DNA of 64,000 bases from an uncultured Collinsella sp. (GCA_902496115.1 CABUZK010000007.1:2256-66255); one strand, 5' to 3'; shown: positions 42,379-64,000, counted from the first letter of the stretch. Made by a program: numbers and translations. Notes: generated by a model from the sequence alone, not told the origin.

Positions 42379-42546
42379 ACGCGTCACTCCCGTGGGGTTC
42401 GCTAAAACTGTCTCTATTGCCACATTTTAGTCACCGCAAGGCTCCCATGCGAAGGTGCCAGACAGCACAGCAATTCGTGTCCGCGCGAGGCTTTAAACTA
42501 GATGCGATAAAGATGCATTCCACAAGAGGAAAGTGGGGCGACAGTG

Positions 42547-43590: not shown

Positions 43591-43659
43591 AGGCAATAGC
43601 GCGGTGCGGCCGACGTCCTCGACGGCGTTCCGTATCACCTGGCATAAGAGGAGTTTTTC

Positions 43660-44448: not shown

Positions 44449-44483
44449 GGCGCACTTACGATAGAAACTGACCAGGGGGCACC

Positions 44484-44705
44484 ATGGAAAGAGAGATCGC
44501 GAATATAGACGAGTTCCAAGTGGACGAAAACGGGATTCCGCTATTTCCAGTAGAACTGAAGGAAGAAGCCAGCCTCTATGTCCTCCCCGACGGGCGTTAC
44601 CTCCCCTGCGGGCTCTACAGGACCGCAGACGGCGGTTCGCTCATTTATGAGCCGTTTGGGCTCAGCACCTTCGGGCAAATGCTTGCTCAATTCAAAGAGT
44701 GCTAG
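44484..44705 (+). CDS. 73-aa hypothetical protein, third gene of the nuclease-ARH operon
   Basis: ORF lies 35 nt after the ARH stop with a GGGGG RBS. No recognisable family. Confidence 0.5.
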   Translation: MEREIANIDEFQVDENGIPLFPVELKEEASLYVLPDGRYLPCGLYRTADGGSLIYEPFGLSTFGQMLAQFKEC

Positions 44706-45441
44706 AGGTTTGATTGCCCGTTAGATCGATACTGTTCCAAACCATGGGATGGGTAGGATGTCTCCCACCGCGTCCTGTGAGGTAAAATCTTGACTGCCGC
44801 GGAATCCGCCTGCGGGCAACGCTCCGATCTCCGATTGGGGTGAAGCCTATGAACTTGTTTCTTGAAATCCTGCGCCTCTCGATGTATGTGACCGGCATTG
44901 CCCGGAACCTCTACTCGATCTGGCGGGAATATAAGCAGTAACGGATAGCGAAGGGAGTCATGAAAAGGGCCGGTTGCAGCCGGCCCTTTAGACGATAATA
45001 CCTGCGTTGCCCGCGCTTCCGAAGTGTGACTAGCTGAGGAGCGGGTTCCGCGGCACAACCTGATTTTACCCAGCGAGGCGGATCTTTTGCAGCCGCTCCA
45101 CCGTTTATTTACATCTACCAACATCGGGATCTAAAACCAAAAGTTTGCGCCCCGAATGGACAGAAAGGAGCGAGATTACGGAGAAGAAGTTGGACAATCG
45201 AGGTTCGGCTTGGAGTCTACATAGCATATGCTAGGAAAATGATGGAGAGGGTCAGGGCACTGCGCGGCGTTGGGCTCACTATCCTGGAGATAACCGAGGC
45301 GCCAGATAGAGCGGCGACGCTTTTCGGGACATTTCCCAGACTTCTCGAGAGGCAATCGCTACCTCAACTCGGCATAAATAGTTCGCCCCGGGGGACAGCC
45401 GAAGAGCCCTTTTTACGGCCACCTTTCATGACGGACAAAAG

Positions 45442-45900
45442 CTATGCGACCACGCCCCGCTTGGGCCTGCCCGAGCGGGGCGTGTCGGTCAGGCGCGCCG
45501 CTATGCTCTCCACGGTCACATAGGTGCGGCGGCCCTTGCGGTAGCCCGTGAGGATTCCCGAGTCGAGCATGTGGGTAATCCTGCCGGGGGAAACGGAGAG
45601 CCCGCGCGCGGCTCCGGCCGCCGAGACCGTCTCCCCCTCCACGATATACCCCTCGTCCGTGGAGAAGGCGACCATCATGGAGAGGCCGCCGTCTGCGGGC
45701 TCGATAAACTCGGGCTCCAGCACGGCGAGGCCGTCCCTCACGAGCACAGCCACGTAGGTGCTCGCCGCGTCCACGGCCTGCTCGGCGGCCTCGGCAATCG
45801 TGTCACCGCAGGCAAAGCATCCCGGTAGCGAGGGAAACTCCACGTCGTAACCACCGTCCTCATCGGGCGTGAGCACCGCCTGATAAACGTATGTCTTCAT
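45442..45900 (-). CDS. HicB-family antitoxin fused to a C-terminal excisionase/MerR-like HTH
   Basis: MKTYVYQAVLTPDEDGGYDVEFPSLPGCFACGDTIAEAAEQA is a HicB/UPF0150 fold. The C-terminus is SAAGAARGLSVSPGRITHMLDSGILTGYRKGRRTYV. Confidence 0.75.
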   Translation of the reverse strand: MKTYVYQAVLTPDEDGGYDVEFPSLPGCFACGDTIAEAAEQAVDAASTYVAVLVRDGLAVLEPEFIEPADGGLSMMVAFSTDEGYIVEGETVSAAGAARGLSVSPGRITHMLDSGILTGYRKGRRTYVTVESIAARLTDTPRSGRPKRGVVA

Positions 45901-46083
45901 ATCTTTCGACCCCCAAGGGAGCGGAGCTAAAGCCATCCCGCCGTCTAAGCCACTCCCCGGACTTGCCCAGGCACTCGCAGCCCTCCATGCTCGTCAGAAC
46001 GTGACGCTCTACCCTGTCCTCTAGCGTGTCGAGTCACATCGTGACGAGACGGTTCGGCCGCCTGACTTCATCCTCGGACAGGC

Positions 46084-46174
46084 AGGGATCATCCCCGCGT
46101 GTGTGGGAAACAGCAGGCTAGCGCAATGCCCGTTGTATTACCTGAGGGATCACCACCGCGCGTGCGGGGAATAG
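46084..46174 (-). CRISPR. Decayed type I-E-like CRISPR remnant (2 repeats, 61-bp period)
   Basis: Minus strand: CTATTCCCCGCACGCGCGGTGGTGATCCC (46174-46146) and CTGTTTCCCACACACGCGGGGATGATCCC (46113-46085). Compare the actinobacterial I-E type ..TCCCCGCGC..GCGGGGATGATCCC. The spacer is ~32 nt. No third repeat and no cas genes are present. Confidence 0.6.
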
Positions 46175-46181
46175 CTATCGG

Positions 46182-46451
46182 CTACATAATCGAGTTCAGG
46201 ACCCTCACGAATTCCTGTGCCTGGGAGCGGCTGCTCAGCCTGTAGTCATAGCCCGTCCGCAGCCTGTTGTTCAAGATCACCTGCTTGCCATTGATTCTAT
46301 AGACACCGGTAACGTCATTCAGGTAAACCACCTCTTCATGCGTGCCGAAGAAGCGGTTCTTCTTGAGCGTGGTGATCCGGTTCGGGTAGATGCAGATTTC
46401 CTTGAATACACCGGCACCCTTATCCCTAAACAGCAGTGTGTCGTTGTCCAT
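46182..46451 (-). CDS. 89-aa hypothetical protein (paralog of 42109..42378)
   Basis: MDNDTLLFRDKGAGVFKEICIYPNRITTLKK... Confidence 0.7.
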   Translation of the reverse strand: MDNDTLLFRDKGAGVFKEICIYPNRITTLKKNRFFGTHEEVVYLNDVTGVYRINGKQVILNNRLRTGYDYRLSSRSQAQEFVRVLNSIM

Positions 46452-46706
46452 TTCTACTCCTCTTTGTTGACGTCGGTTAGATTGCGGTTCGAGCTGTCAT
46501 ATTGCTAGATTACCAGTTAGATCGGCACTGTTCCAAAACCGTGAGATGGCATGCCGTGCGCTCTCGTCCTCAACAGTGAATAGATTGAAACAGCAATTGC
46601 GCGCTGCTCCGATTCAGCTCTCATGCCTTTATCCGTTACCAAATCATTAGCTTGTGGGCAAAACCAGCTGGCTCCGACGGATCAATGCGACTAGAACAAG
46701 GGCTTT

Positions 46707-46783
46707 GGTTATAAATAACCTGAAAACCATCTGGTTATCAATAACCTTATGTGCTATAGTTCAATCAGCGGTTATTGATAACC
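46707..46783. promoter_or_regulatory. Three 14-bp palindromes GGTTAT-NN-ATAACC (candidate operator array)
   Basis: GGTTATAAATAACC (46707-46720), GGTTATCAATAACC (46733-46746) and GGTTATTGATAACC (46770-46783). The last ends 5 nt before the MTase start codon. Confidence 0.6.
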
Positions 46784-46788
46784 AATCA

Positions 46789-48525
46789 ATGAAAGGATTC
46801 AAATTGTTTAACGTCAACGCACAGGCAAAGGAAATCGGCTGGACTCTCACGACCCGCCTCCGCAGTTCATTGCCGTCCGACTATCTCTATCCGCTCGTTT
46901 ATCTCGCGCGCTTCGCTCAGAAAACCGGCAGATGCGACGACCACGCCGAAATGATTGAGCTCGCATCCCAGGGTGACGGCGATATCGCTGCTCTGCTCGA
47001 TCACGCCTATAAACGAATTGCCGCAGACGGATCATTCGACGAACTCCTTGCCGCTCTTTCCAATTTCAACGAAGAAGCAATCGACAAATTCCTTCAGGAC
47101 GGCCCGATCAGCCAGGGAATCTTTGGCGGAGAGTCCTCGACCCCCGAGGGAATCGCGCACCTCGCACTTGCTGTTCTAGATATTAAGTCCGGCGAGAAGG
47201 TCATTGACTTCGGCTGCGGAACGGGCAATTTTCTCGAAGCTGCCGCGACGAAATGCCCCGATGCCAAACTTATGGGCGTCGAACTAAATTCGAACACCCT
47301 TGCCATCGCAAAGCTCCGTTCCAAAGTCAAGAGTTCGCAGATTTACTATGCCTGTGATGACATGTTTCGCTATTTCGACAGCAGCATCGAGTGCAATCCT
47401 GTAGATAAAGCATTCTCCAACTACCCCTGGGGAATGCAGACCAAGATGTTCTATAAGAGTTCTAATTACATTGAGAAAGTCATGAAAGGCCAGGAACGCT
47501 ACAGCCGCCCGTCGTCATCCGATTGGGTCTTCAACCGTCTTCTTGTCGATTCCCTTAAAAAGGACGGGACCGCCGCCGCAGTCATGTCGAACGGCGCGTG
47601 CTTCAATGGCATGGATAAACCTGTTCGCGAATATTTCGTTAAGAACGGTTTCATTAAAGCGATTGTCGCACTGCCTAAGGGGGTCTTTGCTCCCTACACG
47701 ATGATTCAAACGTCATTCGTCATCCTTAGCGCAGGCGGCTCCAAGGGGGTTCGCTTTGTCGATGCAACTGATTTAGGCACCAATGATCGCCGCAGCTGCT
47801 CAATTGACGAAACCGCCATTAACGCGATTGTCGAGCGCCTCGGCACCGATTCCGAAAAGAGTGTTTTCAAAACACTTGATGAAATTGCGGCGCGTGACTT
47901 CGATCTCTCTGCAAAGCGTTATCTCGAAAAAGAAATCGAGGTCCCGAATGGGGTTGAGCTCGGGAGCGTCGCAAAAATCATGCGAGGCGCAAGCGTTCGC
48001 GCAGCAGAACTCGATGCACTTGTCTGTGACGAAGACACCGGACTCAGCTATCTCAACCTGGGAAATATCTCTGATGGGTCTATCGACGACGACCTTCCAA
48101 ACCTCTCCACGCTCGACATGAAGCTTGAGAAGTATCGCATCCACGACGGTGACGTCCTCATCTCAAAGTCTGGAGCCCCATTCAAGGTTGCGGTTGCCGA
48201 AGTTCCCGAAGATCGAAAAATCATCGCAAATGGAAACCTGTACGTATTGAGCACCAACAGAGAAAAGATTGACCCCTACTATCTCGCAGCGTTTTTCTCG
48301 AGCCCCACTGGAAAAGAGCTCCTTGCCCGCGAAGCAGTCGGCACTACCATACCCAGTGTGCCCATCAAAGCTCTCAGCAACATCAAGGTGCCCCTCGAGG
48401 ACGCCGATCGTCAGAAGACGATTGCCGATGCCTATCTCGCCAAGACAGACGAGATCAAGTTGTTAAAGTTACGTCTATCTCGAGCCCGCCAGGAACTTAC
48501 CGACCTTTTCGATGAGGAGGGTTAG
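46789..48525 (+). CDS. N6-adenine DNA methyltransferase fused to a single HsdS-type target-recognition domain
   Basis: ATG at 46789. Motif I VIDFGCGTGNFL and motif IV SNYPWG. The C-terminal ~190 aa is TRD-like (GVELGSVAKIMRGASV..., IPSVPIKALSNIKVPL) followed by a coiled conserved region. Confidence 0.8.
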   Translation: MKGFKLFNVNAQAKEIGWTLTTRLRSSLPSDYLYPLVYLARFAQKTGRCDDHAEMIELASQGDGDIAALLDHAYKRIAADGSFDELLAALSNFNEEAIDKFLQDGPISQGIFGGESSTPEGIAHLALAVLDIKSGEKVIDFGCGTGNFLEAAATKCPDAKLMGVELNSNTLAIAKLRSKVKSSQIYYACDDMFRYFDSSIECNPVDKAFSNYPWGMQTKMFYKSSNYIEKVMKGQERYSRPSSSDWVFNRLLVDSLKKDGTAAAVMSNGACFNGMDKPVREYFVKNGFIKAIVALPKGVFAPYTMIQTSFVILSAGGSKGVRFVDATDLGTNDRRSCSIDETAINAIVERLGTDSEKSVFKTLDEIAARDFDLSAKRYLEKEIEVPNGVELGSVAKIMRGASVRAAELDALVCDEDTGLSYLNLGNISDGSIDDDLPNLSTLDMKLEKYRIHDGDVLISKSGAPFKVAVAEVPEDRKIIANGNLYVLSTNREKIDPYYLAAFFSSPTGKELLAREAVGTTIPSVPIKALSNIKVPLEDADRQKTIADAYLAKTDEIKLLKLRLSRARQELTDLFDEEG

Positions 48526-48527
48526 CC

Positions 48528-49067
48528 TTGGCGCATCTCACCATTCAGGAGCTCTCCGACCTTTGCGACGAGATGATGGGGCGCATGGGGCTCGAACTAC
48601 TACCCGCCATAACAAAGGCGAATCGCGAAGACACCCTAGAGGATCTTTTGGCATCCCTTGGAATGTCCGACCTTCTCGTAAGCGAAAACGATCCCCATGA
48701 GGAACGTTTTCTGGGTAAGATCCTCGTTGTCGGCGCAAGCGCCGTTAACGTCGACAAGCTGCGCAGTATCGCCCGCAAGAAAGGGTTCGATCCGAATCGA
48801 TTTGAGTTCCAGCTCGAATATTCCCGACTCAAGCACTTCAACTTCGGCAAAATACGCGGCTCGATGGGCTACGCCGCAATACTTGCGGGCCCCATGCCTC
48901 ACAAGACTCCGGGCGCCGATGAAGCCTCGAGTTTCATCGCTCGCGTTGAGAACAATCCGGATGACTACCCGACACTCATTAAAATGCAAACGGGAAACGA
49001 CCTCAAGATCACCAACAACAGCTTCAAGCAAGCGCTTGGCCAACTGTCACAACACGAGTGCCTGTAA
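48528..49067 (+). CDS. 179-aa hypothetical protein, translationally coupled to the MTase-TRD gene
   Basis: TTG start 2 nt after the upstream stop, GAGGAGGG 8 nt upstream. Central KILVVGASAVNVDKLRSIARKKGF suggests a small Rossmann-like unit. Family not recognised. Confidence 0.55.
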   Translation: MAHLTIQELSDLCDEMMGRMGLELLPAITKANREDTLEDLLASLGMSDLLVSENDPHEERFLGKILVVGASAVNVDKLRSIARKKGFDPNRFEFQLEYSRLKHFNFGKIRGSMGYAAILAGPMPHKTPGADEASSFIARVENNPDDYPTLIKMQTGNDLKITNNSFKQALGQLSQHECL

Positions 49068-49248
49068 ATTGAAGCCGATTTAATTAATAAACGAGCCCTG
49101 CCACTGACTGCCATTCTAATGTAATCAACCGATAAGAGAAATGGCGACCAACGGGTGTCAGATATACCAATATATGCAAGATTAACTGCTAGAATGCAAT
49201 GGTGGACAGGCTCACCAACGTCGTGGAAGCATAAGGTAAGGAGTGCGC

Positions 49249-52338
<3,090 letters not shown>

Positions 52339-52352
52339 GGAGCTAAAACAGC

Positions 52353-53876
52353 ATGGCTAAACGCAAAGCTAAGGACACCAAGAAGAACACTGCCGACGTT
52401 GGCTTTGAGGATCAACTGTGGAACGCCGCAGATGTGCTGCGTGGCAACTTGGACGCTGCTGAGTACAAAAACGTCGTATTAGGCCTCATTTTCCTGAAGT
52501 ATCTCTCGGACCGTTTCGACGAACGCTACCTAGAGCTCGTCGCAGAGGGTTACGGCGACGAGGAGGATCGCGACTGCTACATGGAGCAGAATGTCTTCTT
52601 CGTTCCCGAAGAAGCACGTTGGGCGAACATCTCACAGGCGGCGCATACGCCTGAAATTGGCCAGATCATTGACAATGCCATGCGCGCCATCGAGCGCGAG
52701 AACGACAAGCTCAAAGACGTGCTGCCCAAAAACTTCGCTCGTCCCGAACTAGATAAGCGGCGCTTAGGCGACGTCGTCGACTTATTCACAAACGTACAAA
52801 TGACCGATAACGAGAGCGAGAAAGACCTGTTAGGGCGCGCATACGAATATTGCCTGCAGAAATTCGCATCAATGGAGGGCAAAAACGCCGGTGAGTTCTA
52901 TACGCCGTCGTGCATCGTGCGCACGCTAGTTGAAATCCTCCAGCCTTTCCACGGTCGTGTGTACGACCCCTGCTGCGGCAGCGGAGGCATGTTCGTGCAG
53001 TCCGCCGCCTTCGTCGAGCACCATGGCGGCAACGTGGTGCAGGACATCACCATCTTTGGCCAGGAGAGCAACCCTACCACGTGGAAGCTCGCAAAGATGA
53101 ACCTCGGTATTCGCGGCATCGAGGCCGATTTGGGCAACTACGCCGACACCTTCAGTGCCGACCAACACAAGAATGAAAAGTTCGATTTTGTACTGGCAAA
53201 CCCTCCGTTCAATCTTAAGAACTGGGGCGGCGAAGCGCTGCAGGAAGACGTACGTTGGAAGTACGGCATGCCGCCCACGGGCAACGCTAACTTCGCTTGG
53301 ATGCAGCATATGATTTGGCATCTTAACGGCACGGGCAAGATTGGCCTCGTATTGGCAAACGGGTCGCTCTCGAGCCAGGCGAGCGGCGAGGGCGATATTC
53401 GACGTGCTATCGTAGAGGACGATTTAGTCGAGGGCATTGTAGCCATGCCGGGGCAGCTGTTCTACAGCACCCAAATTCCCGTGTGTCTGTGGATCCTGAA
53501 CAAGAAGAAGGCTCAGTCCGGCAAGACACTATTCATCGATGCCCGCGAAATGGGCACCATGGTCTCTCGCAAACTACGCGAGTTTACCGAAGAGGACATC
53601 AACAAAGTTGCATCCGCATTCGACTCCTTCCGCAAGGGCAAGTTCGAGCCCGTGAAGGGGTTCAGCGCCATAGCGGATTTGGATGAAATCGCCAAGCAAG
53701 ATTTCATCCTGACGCCCGGTCGCTACGTAGGCATTGCCGAGATCGAAGACGACGGCGAGCCGTTTGAGGAGAAGATGGCACGCCTAACCAGCGAGATTTC
53801 AAAGTGTTTTGAAGAGTCCAACCGCTTGCAGGAGCAGATTAAGAAGAATCTGGAGGCGATTGGTTATGGGATGTAG
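52353..53876 (+). CDS. hsdM: Type I restriction-modification system, M subunit
   Basis: HsdM N-domain LWNAADVLRG, VYDPCCGSGGMF and NPPFN. Confidence 0.93.
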   Translation: MAKRKAKDTKKNTADVGFEDQLWNAADVLRGNLDAAEYKNVVLGLIFLKYLSDRFDERYLELVAEGYGDEEDRDCYMEQNVFFVPEEARWANISQAAHTPEIGQIIDNAMRAIERENDKLKDVLPKNFARPELDKRRLGDVVDLFTNVQMTDNESEKDLLGRAYEYCLQKFASMEGKNAGEFYTPSCIVRTLVEILQPFHGRVYDPCCGSGGMFVQSAAFVEHHGGNVVQDITIFGQESNPTTWKLAKMNLGIRGIEADLGNYADTFSADQHKNEKFDFVLANPPFNLKNWGGEALQEDVRWKYGMPPTGNANFAWMQHMIWHLNGTGKIGLVLANGSLSSQASGEGDIRRAIVEDDLVEGIVAMPGQLFYSTQIPVCLWILNKKKAQSGKTLFIDAREMGTMVSRKLREFTEEDINKVASAFDSFRKGKFEPVKGFSAIADLDEIAKQDFILTPGRYVGIAEIEDDGEPFEEKMARLTSEISKCFEESNRLQEQIKKNLEAIGYGM

Positions 53877-55047
53877 AGTCGCACTTGGTGACGTTTGTAG
53901 CTTCTACCGCGGCGCCAGCGTCCCCCGTACCCGCATGTACGATAAGGGTGCCTATCTTTACATTCACTATGGAGATCTTTACAAAGGTTTCGACCTACAC
54001 ATCGACGTTGAAGACCCCGCAAAACCCATCCCATACATCCTTAACAACGAAAAGATAAAAGACAGTCAGCGTCTCAGAGACCAAGACATCGTATATGTGC
54101 TGACCTCAGAGACAGTCGATGACCTTGGTCATGCCTACTTGTTTAACAATCCAAAGGACAAGCCTGCCATTTCAGGCACCGAAACAACCATCGTGCGCGT
54201 CAATCGCCGAGACCTCGTCGTGCCGGCTTACCTCAACTATCTCATGAGCTCTCCGCGCTTTATTAGAGAGCTCCGGCAGTACACGAGAGGCATGAAGGTA
54301 TTCCGTGTCCATCCCAAAGACGTGGCACGAATCGAAATCGATTTACCGCAAACTGAGGTGCAGCATCAAATTGTTTCAATACTTGACGCGATATACGCAA
54401 AGCAGCAAGCAAACTCTAAGCTAAATGGCTATTTACTTGATTTGGCAACAGCGCAATTTGAGGCTGCGCTGAAAGAGCGTGCGTCCAATGTGAGGCTTGG
54501 AGATATCATCGGGCTCGAAGATTCAAAGAGAGTTCCTCTAAATAGCAGGGATCGCGAGAGTCGAAAAGGGCCTTATCCATATTACGGGGCAACGTCAATC
54601 ATGGATTATGTCGACGATTACCTTTTCGATGGGGTGCGGGTGTTGCTTGGTGAAGACGGCTCAGTCATCGATTCTGAGGGGAAGCCCGTTCTTCAGTACG
54701 TCTGGGGAAGATATTGGGTCAACAACCATGCCCATATTCTGAAAGCTGCTGGCGCGTATCCTCTAGAAGCTATATATGTCGCGTTGAGGCGCACCTCGAT
54801 CGGCCATATTGTTACCGGTGCAGTTCAAATGAAGATCAGCCAGCGTAATTTAAAAAAACTCGAGGTATCTATGCCGGATCCGGGGTCGCTCGACTACCTA
54901 CAGCCCCTTTTCGCTGCATACCGTAATCTGTGTGAAGAAAGTCGCCACCTTGTAACTCTTCGCGACACCCTTCTCCCCAAGCTCATGACGGGCGAGATCG
55001 ATGTCTCAGAGCTCAACCTCAAGCAGCTAAATAGCCATTTAGCTTAG
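53866..55047 (+). CDS. hsdS: Type I R-M specificity subunit (expressed copy; TRD1a-CR1-TRD2a-CR2)
   Basis: ATG at 53866 overlaps the hsdM end by 11 nt. The central conserved region is ...NSKLNGYLLDLA. The C-terminal conserved region is LRDTLLPKLMTGEIDVSELNLKQLNSHLA. Confidence 0.9.
   Translation: MGCRVALGDVCSFYRGASVPRTRMYDKGAYLYIHYGDLYKGFDLHIDVEDPAKPIPYILNNEKIKDSQRLRDQDIVYVLTSETVDDLGHAYLFNNPKDKPAISGTETTIVRVNRRDLVVPAYLNYLMSSPRFIRELRQYTRGMKVFRVHPKDVARIEIDLPQTEVQHQIVSILDAIYAKQQANSKLNGYLLDLATAQFEAALKERASNVRLGDIIGLEDSKRVPLNSRDRESRKGPYPYYGATSIMDYVDDYLFDGVRVLLGEDGSVIDSEGKPVLQYVWGRYWVNNHAHILKAAGAYPLEAIYVALRRTSIGHIVTGAVQMKISQRNLKKLEVSMPDPGSLDYLQPLFAAYRNLCEESRHLVTLRDTLLPKLMTGEIDVSELNLKQLNSHLA
54419..54440 (+). 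repeat. Shufflon recombination site S1
   Basis: AGCTAAATGGCTATTTACTTGA is the exact inverted repeat of 57134-57155. Confidence 0.8.
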
Positions 55048-55486
55048 TGTTGAGTTCAATTTTATTGTCCAGTAAACCCAGGACGCCAGAAATAGCGGTC
55101 TGTGTTTCGTAATCCGGAACACAGACCGGGCATAGATGAACGTGATTGCGATTTATGCCCGGCACGGCGCTTGCAGTTAAGTAGTCTCGCCATGGAATAG
55201 TTTTGAGTAGATAATAAACGAACTTAGGATCATTGCCCTTAAAGTCTGTCGAGTACAAAGACGTATTTAATGGCCAGCAAGCTGCATCAGAGAAAAAAAC
55301 TTGGCCAATAGTTCCGTAGCGTCCAGTTACGACGCATGGACCCTTAACGGCGGCTTTCGAATGCGTGCCCGTTTGTCCCGAAGATGAGAAAACCGGATAG
55401 GGGCCATCAGCCCTGCTGCTGGAAGGGAGGTCAAACCCCCTTTTTAGATTAACAATCTCTCCCAAGGTCTTTTGCGTCCAGCTCAT
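55019..55486 (-). CDS. Silent/alternative hsdS half-gene (TRD1b ending in CR1 ...KLNGYLAA)
   Basis: 155 aa, MSWTQKTLGEIVNLKRGFDLPSS.... Its start overlaps the recombinase stop (ATGA). Confidence 0.8.
   Translation of the reverse strand: MSWTQKTLGEIVNLKRGFDLPSSSRADGPYPVFSSSGQTGTHSKAAVKGPCVVTGRYGTIGQVFFSDAACWPLNTSLYSTDFKGNDPKFVYYLLKTIPWRDYLTASAVPGINRNHVHLCPVCVPDYETQTAISGVLGLLDNKIELNTKLNGYLAA
55023..55041 (-). repeat. Shufflon recombination site S2
   Basis: GCAGCTAAATAGCCATTTA is the exact inverted repeat of 56500-56518. The core TAAATAGCCATTTA is the reverse complement of the S1 core. Confidence 0.8.
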
Positions 55487-56406
55487 TCCAAATACTTCCT
55501 GTGCGAAGCCTTCACATTGCTCTGATTAACCATGGCGTAGTACATGGTTGTGTCTATTTTCGCATGGCCCAACAGCTTTTGCACCTGCTCTATGGGCATT
55601 CCCTTGTCGATAGCATGGGTGGCAAGCGTACGGCGAAACTTATGCGGATGAACGCGGTTGATACCGGCGCTTCTGCCTAGGTCACGTAAACGGAGTTCTA
55701 TGCTCCCCACCGTAATACGTCGAGCTGAGGAATCGAGCGCGACAAATAATGCAGGACTCTTGTCAGCACGGCTCGAAAGATATTCCGTAAGATGAAGCTT
55801 AGCGCGCGCATCGAAGTAAACGGGGCGCTGCTTATTTCCCTTTCCCATTACAAGGCATTCGCGCTCGTGCAGATTGACATCCTTCCTGTCGAGTCGCACA
55901 AGTTCGCCAATACGCATGCCCGTCGAAGCGAGTAGATCAACGATGGCAAGATCTCGCTTGGACTCACAGGCGTCTCGCAATACCTCCAGTTCCTCATCGC
56001 TAAGCACCTCTTTGGTTACTTGAGCTGTTTTGACGCGACGAATGCGCCTTACAGGACTTTTCACAATGTAATCCTCATCTTCAAGCCACGAAAAGAAGCT
56101 CGACATGATACGACGTATATTATCGATTGTGACCTTACTAGAACCGCGTTTCACCTCGTAATCATTGAGATAGCGGCGCAAGTCGTCGCTCTCAACCTGG
56201 GTATAGGGCTTAGCAAGCGCTGTGTTCATATGCCGTAAGGTTGCCTCATAGTATGCAATGGTTTTAGGAGAGCATCCCTCGACCTCTTTAGCGGTGAGAA
56301 AGAGCACAAGCAGATCTTGCTCTGGCTCTGTTTGTTTCGGCCCGAGTGCCCGTCTAAGCGTAATGGTTAGATGTTTGAGCTGGTGTGGGTCGAGAAGGCC
56401 CTGCAT
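55483..56406 (-). CDS. Tyrosine site-specific recombinase (XerC/D-integrase family) embedded in the hsdS shufflon
   Basis: Internal ATG at 56406 of the 549-aa track ORF. SAM-like N-domain. The catalytic-domain motifs include ...TGMRIGEL..., HPHKFRRTLATH and the terminal ...MYYAMV Tyr. Confidence 0.85.
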   Translation of the reverse strand: MQGLLDPHQLKHLTITLRRALGPKQTEPEQDLLVLFLTAKEVEGCSPKTIAYYEATLRHMNTALAKPYTQVESDDLRRYLNDYEVKRGSSKVTIDNIRRIMSSFFSWLEDEDYIVKSPVRRIRRVKTAQVTKEVLSDEELEVLRDACESKRDLAIVDLLASTGMRIGELVRLDRKDVNLHERECLVMGKGNKQRPVYFDARAKLHLTEYLSSRADKSPALFVALDSSARRITVGSIELRLRDLGRSAGINRVHPHKFRRTLATHAIDKGMPIEQVQKLLGHAKIDTTMYYAMVNQSNVKASHRKYLE

Positions 56407-56499
56407 TTCCGAAAGTACGGTATTGATGACAGTTTCCACGCTGTTCCTTTCGTCGAGTACGATAGCCACAGTGTGGACGGCGCGTTGTACATAGTGAAG

Positions 56500-56518
56500 T
56501 AAATGGCTATTTAGCTGC
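56500..56518 (+). repeat. Shufflon recombination site S3
   Basis: TAAATGGCTATTTAGCTGC. See S2. Confidence 0.8.
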
Positions 56519-57133
56519 GTAAAATCGACCCTTGAGACGTCGATCTCGCCCGACATAAGTTTGGGGAGAAGAGCGTCACGAAGAGCAGCCAGTTTTCGGT
56601 TCTGTGTCGAATTCTGAACAATCTGTTCTCTCAATGGCTCTGCAATAGTATTAAACCTCTCGAGATCTCCTCTTGCAGGAATAGGCACGTTCAACGCTTC
56701 CAAATCGCCTTTTCCCATATGCGCGACGGTAGTACCAGAGGCGTAGTTCTGGATGAAAGCCAACAATGGGTTCAATGCCATAAGCAAATAACTTCTTGAA
56801 ACTCCCGAATTGGCAGCGGGCTCGAAAAGGCAAACTCGCTGATTCAGTACAGCCATTTCACCCTGCCAGAGACATGGCGTGAATTCGGCATCCATTCCCG
56901 CTAAAACGTCACCAGGATGTACGAATACCCTTTTTGGATGAGCCTCATTTGTCCAATACTGCGGAGAGAAGGTGCTCAAATCACGTATGCGGATCAGGGG
57001 ATACCCTACCTTTTCCTCGTTAAACAAGGCAGACTTGAACGCTGCTCCATAAACAACATCAGCAATGTCATAAATTGACCCGAGGGTTAACTTGTTGCAG
57101 CAGAAGGAATGTTGGTACTGAACATTCATCAAC

Positions 57134-57155
57134 TCAAGTAAATAGCCATTTAGCT
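57134..57155 (-). repeat. Shufflon recombination site S4
   Basis: TCAAGTAAATAGCCATTTAGCT. See S1. Confidence 0.8.
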
Positions 57156-57194
57156 AAGTCTCTACGTCAGCTCGGACGCCATGTCTCGCCGCAC

Positions 57195-57231
57195 AAAAAC
57201 GGGGCAGCCAGCACTCCTGCGAACTGCCCCG
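57195..57231 (-). terminator. Rho-independent terminator of the zinc-ribbon protein gene
   Basis: Minus strand: CGGGGCAG-loop-CTGCCCCG followed by TTTTT. Confidence 0.7.
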
Positions 57232-57274
57232 CACCCCCGGCCATCACGTTACAGTACCAACCAGCACCACTCCC

Positions 57275-58612
57275 CTACTTCCCAAAGATCGCGCCGAACA
57301 GGCCCTTGCGCTTGGGCTTTTCCTCTCGGTAAGAACCCTCGGCCGCCGCTGCCACTTGGCGCGGTTGTTCGCCGCCTCCGCGGCGTACGATCTGGTATAG
57401 GAAGGGCGATTTAACGTATTTGACCTCGATGGGCGTAGCGTGCACGGTGCTTTCGCTCGACAGCATCACGTTGGGATTGAGCGGTGCCACCACATGCGTT
57501 TCGCGCTTGTCGCTAAACACCACCGCGGCCGCGCGACCCGTCTGGCCGTTTACGGCAATGCGTACCTGTTCGCCGTCGCGGCTATCCGACGCCGGGCGAT
57601 CGACAAAGTAGACCGGTACCATCACCAGGCCGTCCTTATGCTTGCGGGCTTTACGCGCCCAGGTGCGGATGCTCTTTTTATTGAGCCCCAGCACCGCCTC
57701 AGCATCGTTGCCGGCAACGTCGAGCGCCAGCTTATCAATGACCACCTGGTCCTTGGTGGACGCATCGACGGAAACGACGCGAAAGTCACCTTCCTGCATG
57801 GCGGGATCGAACGACCCCACCTTGCCAAAGTCCCACGGCTCCAAAATGCCCATAAGGTGAACGTCCAGGTAGTTTGCCCGCGGATACGCCCAGTCGAGCA
57901 CCTCGTAGTACACCAAGGTCTCCTTGCTCAGGCCCTTTCCCGGGAAGGACGCCATCATGCGCAGGTCCGCCAGCGCCATGGGGAAATAGAAGAGCATCAT
58001 GTCGTTTTGAATCGCGTCTTCCACGTCGTGCCCGGCAAAGGCATCAGGGTACTGGCGCACCAGCTGCAGCGCGTTGGCACGTGCCTGCTGTGGCGATATC
58101 TCACAGGGGACGCCCTGTTCGGGAACGTATTCGGCACCCACGCCCATGGTCAGGCGCTTGCTAAACGTGCCGGGCTTGAGAAGGTCAACCATACCGATTT
58201 TATTTCCGCAGGACGGGCACTCAAACACGCGCTGGGTCGATGACCCCTCAAAGGACGCGCCGCAGAAGGGGCAGGGAATGCTCACGTGCGTCGCCTCTTG
58301 GATCTCCTGCGCCGTGCCGCGGTCCTCCCACAGCAGGTGCTCAAGAACCGACTGATTGCGCCAGTGCGAATTGAAGAAATACCAGTCCGGGTCCTCCGGG
58401 CGCTCGAGTTGCGACACATGCGTGAGCTTGAGCAGTCCATCCACCACCGTCAACGGCGTATGGCGAATGCCCAGGGCGCTCTTGGGCTCCCCCGCATCAG
58501 CCTGCCACGGAACGACCGTGCCGCAATAGGCGCACTCAAAGCTGCGCTTAGCCTGGTGCGAGTACATAGGGCCGCCGCAGTTTTGACATTTAATGGCAAA
58601 CATCTCGTCCAT
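57275..58612 (-). CDS. Hypothetical protein with two zinc-ribbon motifs
   Basis: ATG at 58612 after AAGGAGG. CQNCGG...CAYCG and CPFCG...CPSCG. 445 aa. Confidence 0.65.
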   Translation of the reverse strand: MDEMFAIKCQNCGGPMYSHQAKRSFECAYCGTVVPWQADAGEPKSALGIRHTPLTVVDGLLKLTHVSQLERPEDPDWYFFNSHWRNQSVLEHLLWEDRGTAQEIQEATHVSIPCPFCGASFEGSSTQRVFECPSCGNKIGMVDLLKPGTFSKRLTMGVGAEYVPEQGVPCEISPQQARANALQLVRQYPDAFAGHDVEDAIQNDMMLFYFPMALADLRMMASFPGKGLSKETLVYYEVLDWAYPRANYLDVHLMGILEPWDFGKVGSFDPAMQEGDFRVVSVDASTKDQVVIDKLALDVAGNDAEAVLGLNKKSIRTWARKARKHKDGLVMVPVYFVDRPASDSRDGEQVRIAVNGQTGRAAAVVFSDKRETHVVAPLNPNVMLSSESTVHATPIEVKYVKSPFLYQIVRRGGGEQPRQVAAAAEGSYREEKPKRKGLFGAIFGK

Positions 58613-58830
58613 GGAAACGTCCTCCTTTGCACAGGGGCTGTCGACATTAAGTATGTCGAGCAAACAGGCACATGCCCATACCCATGTGGCCCAAAATGGA
58701 CCACCCAGGCAGACGAGAAGGCTCGCTCGTTAGTACCGGCAGACTATTGCTGCATTTTCTGAGCATCGGTGCACGGCGCCCCCGCGCGAGCTACACTATC
58801 CCCTTAAACATGATTGTGAGGACGACCGCT

Positions 58831-60012
58831 ATGCTATTTGTAAATCGGCTGGTACATACGCTTGTTCCCGGCAGCGAGAGCGAGCCGGTCGATGCATCTT
58901 GCCGCACCAACGCGGGCTTTTCCGCAAGCCTCGTCTGCATTGGCCTCAACATCACCCTGTGCCTGGCCAAGGGCATCGCGGGCCTGCTCGCCGGCTCCGT
59001 CTCCCTCATCGCCGACGCTTTCAACAACCTCTCCGATGCCTCGAGCAACATCGTGAGTCTGCTCGGGTTCCGCCTTGCCAGCCGCCCGGCAGACGAAGGC
59101 CACCCCTATGGCCACGGTCGCTATGAGTACCTAGCCGGCCTGTTCGTCGCCGTCCTGGTTTGCGCCGTCGGCATCAATCTGATCCTCGAGTCGGTCACTA
59201 AGATCATCAAGCCTTCCCCCACCGTGTATTCGGCGCTCTCCATGGCCGCCCTTGTTCTGTCCATGCTCGTTAAGCTCTGGATGGCAGCGTTCAACCGCAC
59301 GCTGGGCGATCGCATCGACTCGGAGACGCTCATCGCCACGGCACAGGACTCCAAAAACGACGTCATCACCTCGGGCTCGGTCTTGGTGGCGGCGCTTATT
59401 TCGCAGACGACCGGCTTTGACCTCGATGGCTGGGCAGGCCTGGGTGTGGGCATCTTTATCTGCATCAGCGGCATGGGCCTAGTGCGTGACGCCATCAGCC
59501 CGTTGCTGGGGCAAGCGCCCGACCCCAAGCTCGTCCAGGCAATCCGCGACAAGATCATGTCCTATCCGCAGGTCTTGGGCACACACGACCTGATGGTGCA
59601 CGACTACGGCCCCGGTCGTCAGTTTGCCAGCGCCCACGTGGAGATGCCCGGCGAGGGCGACGCGTTTGAGCACCACGAGATCCTGGACACCATCGAGCAC
59701 GACATCAAGCGCCAGATGGGCATTGGAATCACGCTGCACTGCGACCCCATCGCGACAACCGGCGACGACCTGCGCGGCTGGGTCAAGCGCGGCGTCATGC
59801 AGATCGATCCCGCGCTCTCCATCCACGACCTGCACGAGCACGACGGGTTCGTTTCGTTTGACCTTGTGCGTCCCGACGGCTTTGACATATCCGACGAGGA
59901 GCTGCTGGAGCTCGTCACGCGCATCGTGCATGAGCGCCGGCCCGACGTCTCATGCGTCGTCACGTTTGATTCGGGCTTTAGCTCGCCCGACCGTCCGGCC
60001 GAGCAGCTGTAG
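58831..60012 (+). CDS. Cation diffusion facilitator (CDF) family transporter
   Basis: SLIADAFNNLSDA, six TM segments and a C-terminal cytoplasmic domain. ATG at 58831 lies 9 nt after GAGGA. Confidence 0.85.
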   Translation: MLFVNRLVHTLVPGSESEPVDASCRTNAGFSASLVCIGLNITLCLAKGIAGLLAGSVSLIADAFNNLSDASSNIVSLLGFRLASRPADEGHPYGHGRYEYLAGLFVAVLVCAVGINLILESVTKIIKPSPTVYSALSMAALVLSMLVKLWMAAFNRTLGDRIDSETLIATAQDSKNDVITSGSVLVAALISQTTGFDLDGWAGLGVGIFICISGMGLVRDAISPLLGQAPDPKLVQAIRDKIMSYPQVLGTHDLMVHDYGPGRQFASAHVEMPGEGDAFEHHEILDTIEHDIKRQMGIGITLHCDPIATTGDDLRGWVKRGVMQIDPALSIHDLHEHDGFVSFDLVRPDGFDISDEELLELVTRIVHERRPDVSCVVTFDSGFSSPDRPAEQL

Positions 60013-60024
60013 CCCACTTAACAG

Positions 60025-61014
60025 CTAGTTTCCCTGCGCGCCCGAGATGCCGTTTTGCAGGGCGTTCCAGGCATCCGTCGCCATGTCGCCCAAGTTCTGC
60101 GCGGTGTCGCCCAGGTTCTGGGCCGTATCGCCCAGCTCTTGCGCCTTGTCTCCCAACTCCTGCGCCTTGTTGCTCAAGTCCTCCAGCGTATTGGAGCTCG
60201 AACTGTCGGTACCGCTTTGGCCGTCGGACGACTTGCCCGAGCTGTTCTTGTGCGTGAGTTGAATTTCGAGGTTGCCGTTGTCGTTATAGTAGGCAGAAGT
60301 AACGACCCAGTTGGCATCGACGACGGGCGTTGAGCCATCATCAGTCAGGACCACGGCATTCGAAAGATCGGCGCCGCGCGACTTGAGGATCTTCTTGGCG
60401 TTGGACCAGTACTGCCCCGGGATATCGCTCAAATCGACGGTGCCAGACGAGGCGGACTCGGTTTGCTCGGCAGCGGTATCGGCCGTTGAGCTTCCTCGCT
60501 TGTTGAGCATGCCCGACACGATGGCAAACACAACCGACAGCGCAAAGAAGATCGCCAGTACGATGAGAATCTTCTTGATCACGCTCGACGAACGCGACGG
60601 CGTCTCTTCCTCGTCCTCACCATACTGCGGGATCGATTTGGGATACTCGCGATACGGCTGGCGCGACTCGTAGCGAGGCTGCGCCGTGCGAGGCATATAC
60701 GTCGTCTGCTGAGGCTGCGGAATGGGATTTTGCGGCAGGCCATCATAGGGATTCGGCGTCGAGGCAGCATAAGAATCCTGCGGCGCGTAATCAAACGGAT
60801 CCGGAGCTGCGTTGCCATAGGGGCCTTGCGAAGATGCAGCGTAAGAATCCTGCGCCGTGTCGCCATAGCCCATAACCCGGGTGGGCTCGGCAGAAGGCTG
60901 CGTCGCGGCGGGATCGGTATAACCGGGGTTGGGAACAACGCGGGTCGCATCGGCGCTATCGCCAGCCTGCGCGGAACCGTAGCCGCGCATCACGGTTGTC
61001 TTGTCCTGATCCAT
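60025..61014 (-). CDS. Pro/Tyr/Gln-rich membrane protein with an extracellular C-terminal domain and heptad repeats
   Basis: 329 aa, one TM segment (ILIVLAIFFALSVVFAIVSG). The C-terminus carries (AQ[EN]LGD[KT]) x5. Confidence 0.65.
   Translation of the reverse strand: MDQDKTTVMRGYGSAQAGDSADATRVVPNPGYTDPAATQPSAEPTRVMGYGDTAQDSYAASSQGPYGNAAPDPFDYAPQDSYAASTPNPYDGLPQNPIPQPQQTTYMPRTAQPRYESRQPYREYPKSIPQYGEDEEETPSRSSSVIKKILIVLAIFFALSVVFAIVSGMLNKRGSSTADTAAEQTESASSGTVDLSDIPGQYWSNAKKILKSRGADLSNAVVLTDDGSTPVVDANWVVTSAYYNDNGNLEIQLTHKNSSGKSSDGQSGTDSSSSNTLEDLSNKAQELGDKAQELGDTAQNLGDTAQNLGDMATDAWNALQNGISGAQGN
60085..60189. repeat. Five imperfect 21-bp tandem repeats inside the CDS
   Basis: GTCGCCCAAGTTCTGCGCGGT / GTCGCCCAGGTTCTGGGCCGT / ATCGCCCAGCTCTTGCGCCTT / GTCTCCCAACTCCTGCGCCTT / GTTGCTCAAGTCCTCCAGCGT. 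Confidence 0.7.
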
Positions 61015-61132
61015 GCAACGATTCCTTTCCGTCGCGCGTGAGCCTCAAGTTATCCATGCATTCTACCCGCGCAAAAACCTATGATGGGCAGAGTCCGTCG
61101 GTATCTACAAGACATGCGCGGGTCTAAGGATC

Positions 61133-61168
61133 AAAAAGCCCCGCCGTGCCTTGTGGGCGCGGCGGGGC
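61133..61168 (-). terminator. Rho-independent terminator of fhs
   Basis: Minus strand: GCCCCGCCG-loop-CGGCGGGGC followed by TTTTT. Confidence 0.8.
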
Positions 61169-61193
61169 GGGCAAGCGGCTATGAGCAGTGAGC

Positions 61194-62861
61194 TTAGAAC
61201 AGGCCGGTGATGTTGCCGTCGTTGTCGACGTCGATGTTCTCTGCCGCGGGCACCTTGGGCAGACCCGGCATGGTCAGAACGCTGCCAGTCAGCGCGACCA
61301 CAAAGTGGGCACCGGCGGAAACCTTGAGCTCACGCACGGTGATGCGGAAGTTCTCGGGAGCGCCCAGGGCCTTGGCGTTGTCGCTAAAGCTGTACTGCGT
61401 CTTGGCGACGCACACCGGCAGGTTGCCAAAGCCGTTCTCGCGCAGCTCGGCGAGCTGACGCTTGGCAGCCGGCGTAAAGTCGACGCCGTCGGCACGGTAA
61501 ACCTTGGTGGCGACGGCCTCGAGGGCATCGGCAACATCGGCGCCGTCCTCGTAGGCAAACTTGAGCTCGCTCGGCTGCTCAATCAGACGCATGACCTCAT
61601 CGGCCAGGTCGAGCGCGCCCTCGCCGCCCTTGGCCCAGACCTCGGAAAGCTTAACGTTGACGCCGAGCTTCTGACACTCGGACTCGATAAGCTCGAGCTC
61701 GGCCTCGGTGTCCGTCGGGAAGCGGTTGATGGCGACCACACAAGGCAGACCGTAGACATTCTGGATGTTATCGACGTGACGCAGCAGGTTGGGCATGCCG
61801 GCCTTGAGTGCCTCGAGGTTCTCCTCGTTGAGGTCGGCCTTGGCGACGCCACCGTTGTACTTCAGCGCACGAGCGGTCGCGACGACCACGACGGCGCTGG
61901 GGCGAACGCCCGTCATGCGGCACTTGATGTCGAGGAACTTCTCGGCACCCAGATCGGCGCCGAAGCCGGCCTCGGTAATGGCGACATCGCCAAAACGCAT
62001 AGCCATACGCGTGGCCATGATGGAGTTGCAGCCGTGGGCGATATTTGCGAAGGGACCGCCGTGGACAAACGCGGGCGTACCCTCGAGCGTCTGCACCAGA
62101 TTGGGCTTGAGCGCATCCTTGAGTAGTGCGGCCATAGCCCCCTGGGCCTTAAGGTCGCGTGCGCGGACGGGCTCGCCGGCAAAGCTGTAGCCGACGACAA
62201 TCTCACCCAAGCGTTCCTTGAGGTCGCTGATGCTCGTAGACAGGCACAGGATTGCCATGACCTCGGAGGCGACGGTGATATCGAAGCCATCCTCGCGCGG
62301 CACGCCCTGGGCCTTACCGCCAATGCCGTCGATGACGTGGCGCAGCTGACGGTCGTTCATATCGACGACGCGCTTCCAAGTGATGCGCTTAACGTCAATA
62401 CCGAGCTGGTTGCCCTGCTGGATGTGGTTATCAAGCATGGCGGCCAGCAGGTTGTTGGCAGCACCGATAGCGTGGAAGTCGCCGGTAAAGTGCAGGTTGA
62501 TGTCCTCCATGGGGATCACCTGAGCCCAGCCGCCACCGGCAGCACCGCCCTTAACGCCAAAGACAGGGCCGAGCGAAGGCTCGCGCAGGGCCACGGCGCT
62601 CTTGACGCCGCGGCGACGCAGGCCATCGGCCAGACCGATGGTCGTGGTGGTCTTGCCCTCGCCCGCAGGCGTTGGGTTGATAGCGGTCACGAGGACGAGC
62701 TTGGCCTGGTGATCAGTCGGCTCGTTGAGCAGTGAATAGTCGACCTTAGCCTTGTCGAAGCCGTACGGAATAAGGTGCTTAACGTCGACGCCGGCGTTCT
62801 TGGCCACCTCGGTAATAGGCAGTGGCGTGACAGAACGTGCGATTTCGATGTCAGTAGGCAT
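61194..62861 (-). CDS. fhs: Formate--tetrahydrofolate ligase
   Basis: ATG at 62861. [11 protein letters not shown]..., [14 protein letters not shown]. Confidence 0.93.
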
Positions 62862-63005
62862 GGGCGGTCCTTTCGTTACCGAATGAGAAAAAGACCAATT
62901 CAGCATAGCACGGGCGCGCAATAGTAAAACGCCCATAACCGATGAATGGCGATATGTTTACCCGATGCCCAGCGATAGCCCAACAGCCCGCCAAAACAAA
63001 GCGCC

Positions 63006-63992
63006 CTAAACGGTAGGTTCAATCCCCAGGTGCTCAAAGGTGCGAAGGGTTGCCTGACGGCCCTGCGGCGTACGAATCATCAACCCGCATTGCAGCAAAT
63101 AGGGCTCATAGACATCCTCGAGCGTGCCCGGGTCCTCGCCCACCGCGCTGGCAAGGGTCGTAAGTCCCACGGCACGACCGGAGAACGTCTTGGCGAGCGT
63201 CTCCAAAATGCGAATATCCATCCAGTCCAGACCGAGCTCGTCGATCTCGAAGAACTCGAGTGCCTGACGGCAGATATCGAGCTCAATGGGACCGTTGCCG
63301 CGCACCTGCGCATAGTCGCGCACGCGCTTGAGCAGGCGGTTGGCAAGACGTGGCGTGCCGCGCGAACGCGAGCCGATCTCGAGTGCACTGGGGTGGTCGA
63401 TCGTCACGCCCAGGATAGTCGCCGAGCGCGTCACAATCTGCGCGAGCTCCTCGACCGTGTAGTAATCCAGGCGATATGAAATGCCAAAGCGGTCGCGCAA
63501 CGGGCCTGTCAACATGCCTGAGCGGGTCGTTGCCGCTACCAACGTAAACTTGGGAATATCCAGGCGAATCGAGCGCGCCGCCGGACCCTTGCCAATCACG
63601 ATATCGAGGGCAAAGTCCTCCATCGCGGGGTACAGGACCTCCTCGACCGAACGGTTGAGGCGGTGGATCTCGTCGATAAACAGCACATCACCCGGCTGCA
63701 AGTTAGTAAGGATGGCCGCCAGGTCGCCCGTGCGCGCGATGGCAGGGCCACTCGTGGTCTTGATCTGAGCGCCCAGCTCGTTGGCGATAACGGTGGCCAG
63801 CGTGGTCTTGCCCAGACCCGGAGGACCCGAGAAGATCACGTGGTCGAGCGTCTCGCCACGGCTCTGTGCCGCTTCGATCAACACGCGCAGGCTCTGCTTG
63901 ATGTGCTCCTGGCCACAGTAGTCGTCCAGGCGCTGGGGGCGCAAAGTGCGGTCGACATCGAGGTCCTCGGCCGTCAGCTCCGAGCCCACCAT
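63006..63992 (-). CDS. ruvB: Holliday junction branch-migration helicase RuvB
   Basis: [27 protein letters not shown] and DEIHRL. The start at 63992 lies 8 nt from the window edge, so it is not verifiable. Confidence 0.9.
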
Positions 63993-64000
63993 GCGCTCGC

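Follow-up and report, generated by a model that had tools for sequence, protein, structure and literature searches.

A probable active, recombinase-driven hsdS shufflon of the SsuCC20p type, with one core sequence at four sites, in gut Collinsella

Whether a Type I restriction-modification (RM) locus of a gut Collinsella can switch its DNA specificity, and by which rearrangements, is the question raised by a 64-kb stretch of DNA from an uncultured Collinsella sp. (GCA_902496115.1 CABUZK010000007.1:2256-66255; hereafter the window, numbered from its first nucleotide). In this window a full-length specificity gene, hsdS, faces a tyrosine recombinase gene that is accompanied by two further hsdS fragments, each encoding a target recognition domain (TRD). 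A sequence-only reading had interpreted this arrangement as a recombinase-driven shufflon with a single type of site, and this interpretation was supported by natural variants of the locus and by homology to the SsuCC20p system of Streptococcus suis. Overall, the analysis indicated that the locus is very probably an hsdS shufflon of the SsuCC20p type that is active and driven by its recombinase.

The sequence TAAATRGCYATTTA was found exactly four times in the window, at 54422, 55028, 56500 and 57139, against a chance expectation of 0.02, and none of 100 dinucleotide-preserving shuffles gave four copies. The proposal of four sites with a shared core was therefore borne out. A script check showed that S1 (54419-54440) and S4 (57134-57155) form an exact inverted repeat of 22 bp, and S2 (55023-55041) and S3 (56500-56518) one of 19 bp, both as claimed; the S2/S3 inverted pair stretches to 86 nt at 83% complementarity. 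The cores of S1 (54422..54435, + strand) and S3 (56500..56513, + strand) read TAAATGGCTATTTA, and those of S2 (55028..55041, - strand) and S4 (57139..57152, - strand) read the reverse complement, TAAATAGCCATTTA, again in agreement with the earlier claim. The 14-bp core is near-palindromic, with TAAA/TTTA arms flanking an asymmetric centre. As this centre reads TGGCTA in one direction and TAGCCA in the other, each site has a direction, and the four sites alternate along the window in the order > < > <.

The same core is present at the midpoint of hsdS (S1 and S4) and at its tail (S2 and S3). On the coding strand, S1 is read as K-LNGYL-L within the central conserved helix and S2 as Q-LNSHL-A-stop, the minus strand of S2 encoding LNGYL. 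On the minus strand, S3 is read as Q-LNSHL-L in the tail of the second TRD2 cassette, 93 nt upstream of the recombinase ATG, and S4 as stop-LNGYL-L, with a TAG stop preceding the site. The dual coding of LNGYL and LNSHL by one site was thus correctly recognised at the outset, but the assignment of LNSHL to the C-terminal conserved region needs qualifying: this motif falls within an 11-residue tail beyond the conserved C-terminal helix (...LRDxLLPKLMxGEIDVS) and outside the helix proper.

A complete Type I RM gene set of hsdR, hsdM and hsdS was detected with Pfam and NCBIfam. The restriction subunit gene, hsdR (49243..52338, +), matched HSDR_N, SWI2_SNF2 and T1RH-like_C in Pfam and hsdR in NCBIfam (581 bits), and the N6-adenine methyltransferase subunit gene, hsdM (52353..53876, +), matched HsdM_N and N6_Mtase (E=4.5e-105). 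The 3' end of hsdM shares 11 nt with the start of the currently assembled hsdS (53866..55047, +), which encodes 393 aa in the order TRD1a-S1-TRD2a-S2, has two Methylase_S stretches in Pfam and ends ...LNSHLA-stop. TRD1a (53866..54421, +) is a fixed head on the hsdM strand and adjoins hsdM in all related contigs. Cassette 1, encoding TRD2a (54436..55027, +), lies between TRD1a and a second, convergent head, the TRD1b half-hsdS (55019..55486, -; 155 aa, ending LNGYLAA-stop; Methylase_S, E=1.1e-11). This half-gene directly follows the recombinase gene (55483..56406, -; 307 aa from the ATG, although gene callers also use a GTG at 56469), and the recombinase stop overlaps the TRD1b start codon as ATGA at 55483-55486. 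Together, the recombinase and TRD1b make up the whole content of a 1,458-bp module. Cassette 2, encoding TRD2b (56514..57138, -; Methylase_S), occupies a silent slot beyond the recombinase, and can be aligned with TRD2a over the C-terminal 76 aa only, at 35% identity. The layout from hsdS to TRD2b, the ATGA overlap and the in-frame reading of TRD2b into the recombinase had all been described in the sequence-only reading, and were confirmed by Pfam domains, direct reading and translation, respectively.

The frame of TRD2b is open into the recombinase, and the resulting 549-aa ORF (55483-57132, -) consists of a TRD (Methylase_S) in its N-terminal third and of Phage_integrase with a SAM-like N-domain in the remainder. 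A functional HsdS-recombinase fusion, or translational coupling of the two, was considered and rejected: the open frame is kept only in Collinsella and one Bifidobacterium, and stops break it in most relatives, S. suis included, as well as in L024, a Collinsella locus of 96% identity. As the read-through is not conserved across the family, it was regarded as an incidental lineage accident.

Related contigs from other samples were found by exact-protein look-ups with HsdM, TRD1b and a 548-aa ORF. With the cores as boundaries, five parts of the window were defined: flank A, segment 1 with TRD2a, segment 2 with TRD1b and the recombinase, segment 3 with TRD2b, and flank B. The contigs were compared with these parts by blastn. 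At least five arrangements were detected among near-identical Collinsella contigs (99.6-100% identity); two of the contigs examined, L091 and L095, represent a more divergent strain, with 97.6-98.5% identity in hsdM/hsdS. The window arrangement, A-1+-2+-3+-B, was also present in L005 and L091, and the partial contigs L092 and L094 were consistent with it. Contig L088 had A-1+-2+-3--B, contigs L002 and L087 had A-3--2+-1--B (L090, partial, also belonging here), contig L001 had A-3+-2+-1+-B, and contig L004 began A-1-..., the product of an S1xS2 flip. Cassette 1 was hence inverted in L004 and located in the distal slot in L001, L002 and L087, while cassette 2 was joined to TRD1a in L002, L087 and L090 and to TRD1b in L001. 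Gene calls reflected these junctions: L002 has a 404-aa TRD1a-TRD2b hsdS, with the same allele in L087, and L001 has a truncated TRD1a of 192 aa and, on the recombinase strand, a TRD1b-TRD2b hsdS of 367 aa. The flip in L004 and the 367-aa gene in L001 both favour the earlier proposal that S1xS2 inversion occurs and that a full hsdS can be assembled on the recombinase strand.

At every junction the core was intact and the flanks were swapped as whole units, and the crossover therefore lies within the 14 bp. Contigs L001 and L004 had zero differences over 5,816 nt and in the cassette, yet differed in arrangement; their sources are two runs with neighbouring accession numbers. The k=31 Logan contigs L004, L092 and L094 stop where a 31-mer no longer tells the alternative flanks apart, which suggests mixed junctions within single samples, as at an assembly-graph branch. 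Among distant relatives, stand-alone contigs of the recombinase module (1.6-2.8 kb) were bounded by sites (L055, L058, L076, L080, L139 and L173), and one of these, L080, derives from an isolate assembly. Such module-only contigs, together with contig ends inside sites, are the assembly signature of variable junctions. These results indicated that switching at the locus is probably ongoing.

Pfam analysis of the recombinase detected Phage_integrase (E=6e-36) and Phage_int_SAM_4, and the protein scored 248 bits against the XerA-type NCBIfam model NF040815 (cut-off, 220). Alignment to the XerA structures 4a8e and 5hxy placed the catalytic R, K, HxxR, H and Y all in position, within the segments GMRIGEL, GKGNKQR, HPHKFRRT, LLGHA and TMYY. 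Against the SsuCC20p XerD, as represented by the recombinase of S. suis 10581, identity was 65% across 275 aa (E=3e-141). When species-representative genomes were scanned with the recombinase, there was a 100% match in an uncultured Collinsella metagenome-assembled genome (MAG) and matches at 93-99% in about 28 Collinsella genomes, C. aerofaciens isolates included. A wider family, with 57-66% identity, extends to Firmicutes, Bacteroidota, Treponema and Methanobrevibacter; the loci of this family likewise show the four-site layout, with near-palindromic cores analogous to that of Collinsella, and both orientations of the recombinase module relative to hsdM were found among them. The recombinase is possibly a TvrR-clade enzyme (clade 2 in the scheme of Huang et al. 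2020), the hint being only that 65%-identical relatives are present in Methanobrevibacter and that archaeal loci fall almost only in clade 2. Rearrangement of the Collinsella locus presumably depends on this enzyme.

The homologous S. suis system provides the experimental precedent. In SsuCC20p, switching is xerD-dependent and the methylome is specific to each allele; the hsdS that lies downstream of the recombinase is active, and a single complete hsdS is present in every assembly (PMC10790761). The published description reports 'two identical sets of IRs', unlike other systems, with TRDs 'switching place' by a mechanism that 'remains unknown' and with xerD never inverted (PMC10790761). In the S. 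suis 10581 locus (L084), the cores TAAATGATGATTTA/TAAATCATCATTTA were identical to the published SsuCC20p repeats and the four-site layout was that of Collinsella. The HsdM and HsdR proteins of the two systems are 61% and 59% identical, respectively. Both systems have four TRDs, with the two TRD2-type cassettes each lying between the same two near-palindromic repeats of 14 bp (S. suis, TAAATCATCATTTA/TAAATGATGATTTA; Collinsella, TAAATAGCCATTTA/TAAATGGCTATTTA, in the same pattern), a TRD1-type half-gene directly after the recombinase, and one complete hsdS per arrangement; an inverted recombinase is rare or absent in both. Several hsdS alleles of one TRD set, as seen in S. suis, were also present in Collinsella, as the five arrangements among near-identical contigs. 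In SsuCC20p the recombinase-side alleles contribute to methylation, and those of Collinsella would be expected to do likewise, each HsdS allele presumably conferring a distinct methylation motif.

How the products of rearrangement are determined was examined by building in silico, and translating, all 16 arrangements reachable by inversion. With segment 2 in its window orientation, eight of eight states had exactly one full HsdS and one half-HsdS. The full proteins were TRD1a-TRD2a (393 aa), TRD1a-TRD2b (404 aa), TRD1b-TRD2a (356 aa) and TRD1b-TRD2b (367 aa), all ending LNSHLA-stop, while the half-proteins were TRD1a alone (192 aa) and TRD1b alone (155 aa), both ending LNGYLAA-stop. When segment 2 was flipped, an HsdS-recombinase fusion of 730 or 741 aa was obtained and TRD1b-led genes extended 58 codons into the chromosome. 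The presence of one full HsdS per state follows from the topology, as the convergent TRD1a and TRD1b heads share one slot; the flanks of these heads each provide a stop in the opposite reading direction.

These features can be assembled into a proposed mechanism. The four sites would divide the region into three movable segments, the TRD2a cassette, the recombinase/TRD1b module and the TRD2b cassette, with strand exchange by the locus-encoded tyrosine recombinase taking place inside the core. The inverted pairs would permit four inversions, S1xS2, S2xS3, S3xS4 and S1xS4. The interval between TRD1a, pointing right, and TRD1b, pointing left, would act as an expression slot from which the resident cassette is expressed, and the orientation of this cassette would decide which head, TRD1a or TRD1b, it continues in frame, the unused head ending two codons beyond the site. 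Silent storage would be provided by the slot between the chromosome and the recombinase gene's 5' end, which has neither head nor stop. Four HsdS proteins (1a2a, 1a2b, 1b2a and 1b2b) could thereby endow a clonal population with four specificities of methylation and restriction, and the simulation, which yielded four full proteins, agreed with the earlier estimate of up to four. An S1xS4 inversion had been proposed as the route by which TRD2 is swapped. The expected TRD1a-TRD2b allele does exist (L002 and L087), but S1xS4 alone is predicted to generate a 741-aa HsdS-recombinase fusion; a clean allele therefore needs either a second, S2xS3 event or excision and reintegration.

Excision is to be expected from the sites themselves, as S1/S3 and S2/S4 are direct repeats with identical cores, a consequence that the sequence-only reading overlooked. 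Recombination of S1 with S3 or of S2 with S4 would release a circle of ~2.1 kb (segments 1 and 2 or segments 2 and 3) carrying the recombinase, and such a circle could reintegrate through its other site. Excision by S1xS3 followed by insertion of the circle's S2 into S4 would convert 1+2+3+ into 3+2+1+, the arrangement of L001, in two events, where four would be required by inversion only. A 2,219-nt MEGAHIT contig (L093; ENA ERZ27270358, k141_115510) was found to have 141 nt that are identical at both ends, matching the assembly k of 141. Its unit of 2,078 nt is exactly segment 1, segment 2 and two cores, and it carries a normal S2 and a hybrid site with S1-right and S3-left flanks. No circular-type contig of the Collinsella locus other than L093 was detected in the related contigs searched. 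A SPAdes contig of 2,365 nt and about 2x coverage (L152; ERZ772820 NODE_21405), from a distant relative whose recombinase is 57% identical, had a 55-nt terminal overlap and a 2,310-nt unit that contains a recombinase, a TRD1 head, one antisense TRD2 cassette and two sites, AAATTATCATTT and AAATGATAATTT. Both contigs would fit excised circles, and they hint at excision and reintegration as a route by which cassettes may move.

Taken together, these observations are compatible with a switch that operates in two modes, in which cassette inversion would pick the TRD1a or TRD1b head and excision-reintegration of the ~2.1-kb circle would swap the expressed and stored cassettes, the recombinase never being inverted. 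We regard this as a tentative reading, with a probability a little short of even. If true, it would explain both the 'switching place' of TRDs and the never-inverted xerD of SsuCC20p, would unite invertons and tvr-type excision systems as one mechanistic family, and would make the convergent Collinsella topology a variant guaranteeing exactly one full HsdS per state.

The strongest alternative is the model of the original interpretation, in which successive inversions account for all arrangements, direct repeats recombine to a negligible extent, and assembly cycles or tandem duplications explain the circular-type contigs. All 16 states are reachable by the four types of inversion, most published hsdS shufflons have been described as invertons (PMC7672463), the duplicated modules in contigs L016 and L040 could close a graph cycle, and the coverage of L152 is low. 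However, a tyrosine recombinase acting on identical cores in direct orientation should also excise, TvrR is published as excising, and Huang et al. propose both reactions for clade 2. Furthermore, L093 begins at an arbitrary interior point and its overlap is exactly k, as is typical of an isolated cycle, the four inversions needed for L001 would have to pass through fusion-ORF states, and the authors of the SsuCC20p study saw TRDs switching place but never an inverted xerD. A shufflon working by inversion only was on balance considered unlikely.

A second alternative is that the locus is frozen, the arrangements being old, fixed strain differences spread by horizontal transfer and the repeats being conserved remnants of hsdS. 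The RM island does appear to move between strains, as lineages that diverge by 5-9% in the flanks share it at 99.7-100% identity, and every contig came from a different sample. This explanation is hard to reconcile with an intact recombinase ORF that retains its catalytic residues, with cores that are perfectly conserved in about 28 Collinsella loci despite differing cassettes, with the zero differences over 5.8 kb between L001 and L004 in spite of their different arrangements, with contigs that break exactly at the sites and with the switching in culture of the homologous S. suis system, and it was judged very improbable. Still less probable is RecA-type homologous recombination between conserved hsdS regions, with the adjacent recombinase irrelevant, for which the 86-nt, 83%-complementary inverted repeat around S2 and S3 and the recombination of long ivr repeats without the locus recombinase, as reported (PMC6620402), could be cited, but junctions such as S1-left/S3-right in L001 and S1-right/S3-left in L093 have no more than the 14-bp core in common, much too short for RecA, every crossover maps within the core, and the 14-bp repeats of SsuCC20p require xerD.

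Several observations weigh against an actively switching locus of the SsuCC20p type, or against the excision step. Within-clone switching is deduced from contigs, and strain mixtures could mimic heterogeneity within a sample. Contigs L093 and L152 could reflect tandem duplication or graph cycles arising from mixed arrangements, and L016 and L040 each contain two recombinase modules. A flipped recombinase module was seen once only, in a Collinsella MAG contig (L031, 4657-6924), in which the recombinase is co-directional with hsdM and an hsdS of the form TRD1-TRD2b runs without a stop into the recombinase as a 755-aa ORF. The topology also differs from that of S. suis: the recombinase/TRD1b module of Collinsella is convergent with hsdM and hsdR lies upstream, whereas hsdM, hsdS and xerD of S. 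suis all run in one direction, with hsdR downstream of them. Finally, a consensus scan detected no promoter-like site for the recombinase strand above the level of shuffles. We therefore infer expression of the TRD1b-led alleles from the S. suis precedent only, and hsdS genes assembled on this strand may be expressed. No terminator-like signal at the locus exceeded shuffles in the same type of scan.

The contig L031 was not counted as a natural module flip; a second module copy is present at the contig end, and the contig may be a chimeric path. Doubled modules were present in two MAGs: L016 (5231-10153), from Collinsella, has six sites and two recombinase-TRD1b modules of identical length with a cassette between them, and L040 (42-4583), from Slackia, has two modules and five sites. 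They are assembly loops or else real tandem duplications produced by recombination between direct sites.

The use of one site for both conserved regions had been put forward as the special feature of the locus. This design is not new, as the 'two identical sets of IRs' of SsuCC20p (PMC10790761) and the shared core of tvr (PMC6265443) have both been published. In tvr/SpnIV of Streptococcus pneumoniae, a core of ~11 bp is common to the midpoint and tail-end repeats, and circles bearing the recombinase gene are excised and reintegrated by TvrR (Kwun et al. 2018, PMC6265443); clade-2, TvrR-like enzymes may invert or excise according to repeat orientation (Huang et al., PMC7672463). The Collinsella locus resembles tvr in having one recombinase, a core repeat common to the midpoint and tail of hsdS, and the recombinase gene inside the shuffled region. 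It differs in that all tvr repeats have one orientation, with no inversions, whereas the sites alternate in the window and in all Collinsella loci, so that both reactions are possible, and in that the Collinsella module is without the toxin-antitoxin-like regulators tvrA and tvrT and the attenuator that lie beside tvrR.

Other hsdS shufflons, such as ivr/SpnIII (cod) with CreX/PsrA, Sag515I, Efa4125I and the Bacteroides fragilis invertons, share with the Collinsella locus a Type I RM system with extra hsdS fragments (PMC4190663, PMC4948785, PMC7672463), as well as a locus-encoded recombinase and TRD swapping that leads to several methylomes. These invertons have two or three distinct pairs of inverted repeats, each restricted in position, in contrast to the single core at four sites of Collinsella; their long repeats recombine without the recombinase, and their silent hsdS copies act as donors only. 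The Enterococcus faecalis EfiA and Streptococcus agalactiae Sag515I invertons were considered as the closest relatives and rejected, as they have two or three distinct repeats. The hsd loci of Mycoplasma pulmonis, with the recombinase HvsR and the vip and hrs sites, were reportedly the subject of work by Dybvig et al. in 1998 and Sitaraman et al. in 2002. In these loci, site-specific inversion is said to trade halves between oppositely oriented hsdS genes, the sites lying within the coding sequence, a likeness to Collinsella, but reportedly with two site types (vip and hrs) and with full-length hsdS genes at both ends. HvsR belongs to an unrelated recombinase clade, clade 6 (PMC7672463).

From this comparison, the locus is an SsuCC20p-type, identical-repeat hsdS shufflon with a convergent topology, and its differences from SsuCC20p are modest. 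The convergent heads of Collinsella allow one slot to serve both heads, unlike in S. suis. The tail site is translated in Collinsella (...LNLKQLNSHLA, the 11-residue tail), whereas in S. suis it lies 5 nt past the stop codon. The host is an actinobacterial gut commensal instead of S. suis, and the Collinsella locus is known from sequence alone. The convergent topology, the translated tail site and the actinobacterial host are thus what differs, and the locus as a whole would not surprise a specialist. In the literature searched, no description was found of a Collinsella or Bifidobacterium hsdS shufflon or of the palindromic sites of this locus, and the papers searched did not describe a phase-variable methylome in Collinsella. 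What the locus chiefly provides is a new phylum for a known family, and it adds in-silico hints, from the circular contigs and the two-step excision arrangement, on how cassettes move in identical-repeat shufflons.

Collinsella is an abundant human gut actinobacterium, and a four-state Type I specificity switch, if true, would generate epigenetic and phage-resistance heterogeneity within clones and would complicate strain tracking, methylation-based binning and genetic manipulation. The > < > < layout of the cores was kept in all of about 28 Collinsella loci from genome assemblies, with cassettes that vary in length and sequence. When every fetched locus with the Collinsella core was included (L006-L031, L039 and others), 28 types of TRD2 cassette (clusters at >=90% identity) were counted among 109 cassette instances. 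A shared core with at least 28 cassette types points to a large common pool of specificity modules.

The G+C content of the RM island is 49-54%, against 60-63% in its flanks. Across L001-L003 the island (window ~44000-57150) was 99.7-100% identical, while the downstream chromosome (57150-64000) was 91-95% identical; the island thus appears to move between lineages. This pattern suggests that the whole RM island may have been exchanged recently between diverged Collinsella lineages at a conserved site. With a near-identical island across diverged lineages and at least 28 cassette types, the locus appears to be a mobile, fast-evolving defence and epigenetic module.

Further genes were noted in and around the island. 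Directly upstream of hsdR are two genes on the plus strand. The first (46654-48525) encodes a 623-aa fusion of an N6-adenine methyltransferase domain and a Methylase_S-type TRD; in NCBIfam the protein is weakly similar to MAD2 and MAD5 of the methylation-associated defense system (MADS), and the gene is called at 573-578 aa in the related contigs L002 and L003. The second, which follows it (48528-49067), is a 179-aa ORF with no family match. On the other side of the locus, immediately upstream of the storage cassette and recombinase and on the same strand, a gene at 57275-58663 (-) encodes a 462-aa protein with several zinc-ribbon motifs and a marginal match to the Cas12f1-like TNB domain in Pfam. 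Genes for a DUF1016/YhcG-type nuclease-like protein, an ADP-ribosylglycohydrolase and a HicB-like antitoxin were detected upstream of the RM genes (42544-44448; positions 194-2096 of L003) and, considered alongside the latter, suggest a small defence island.

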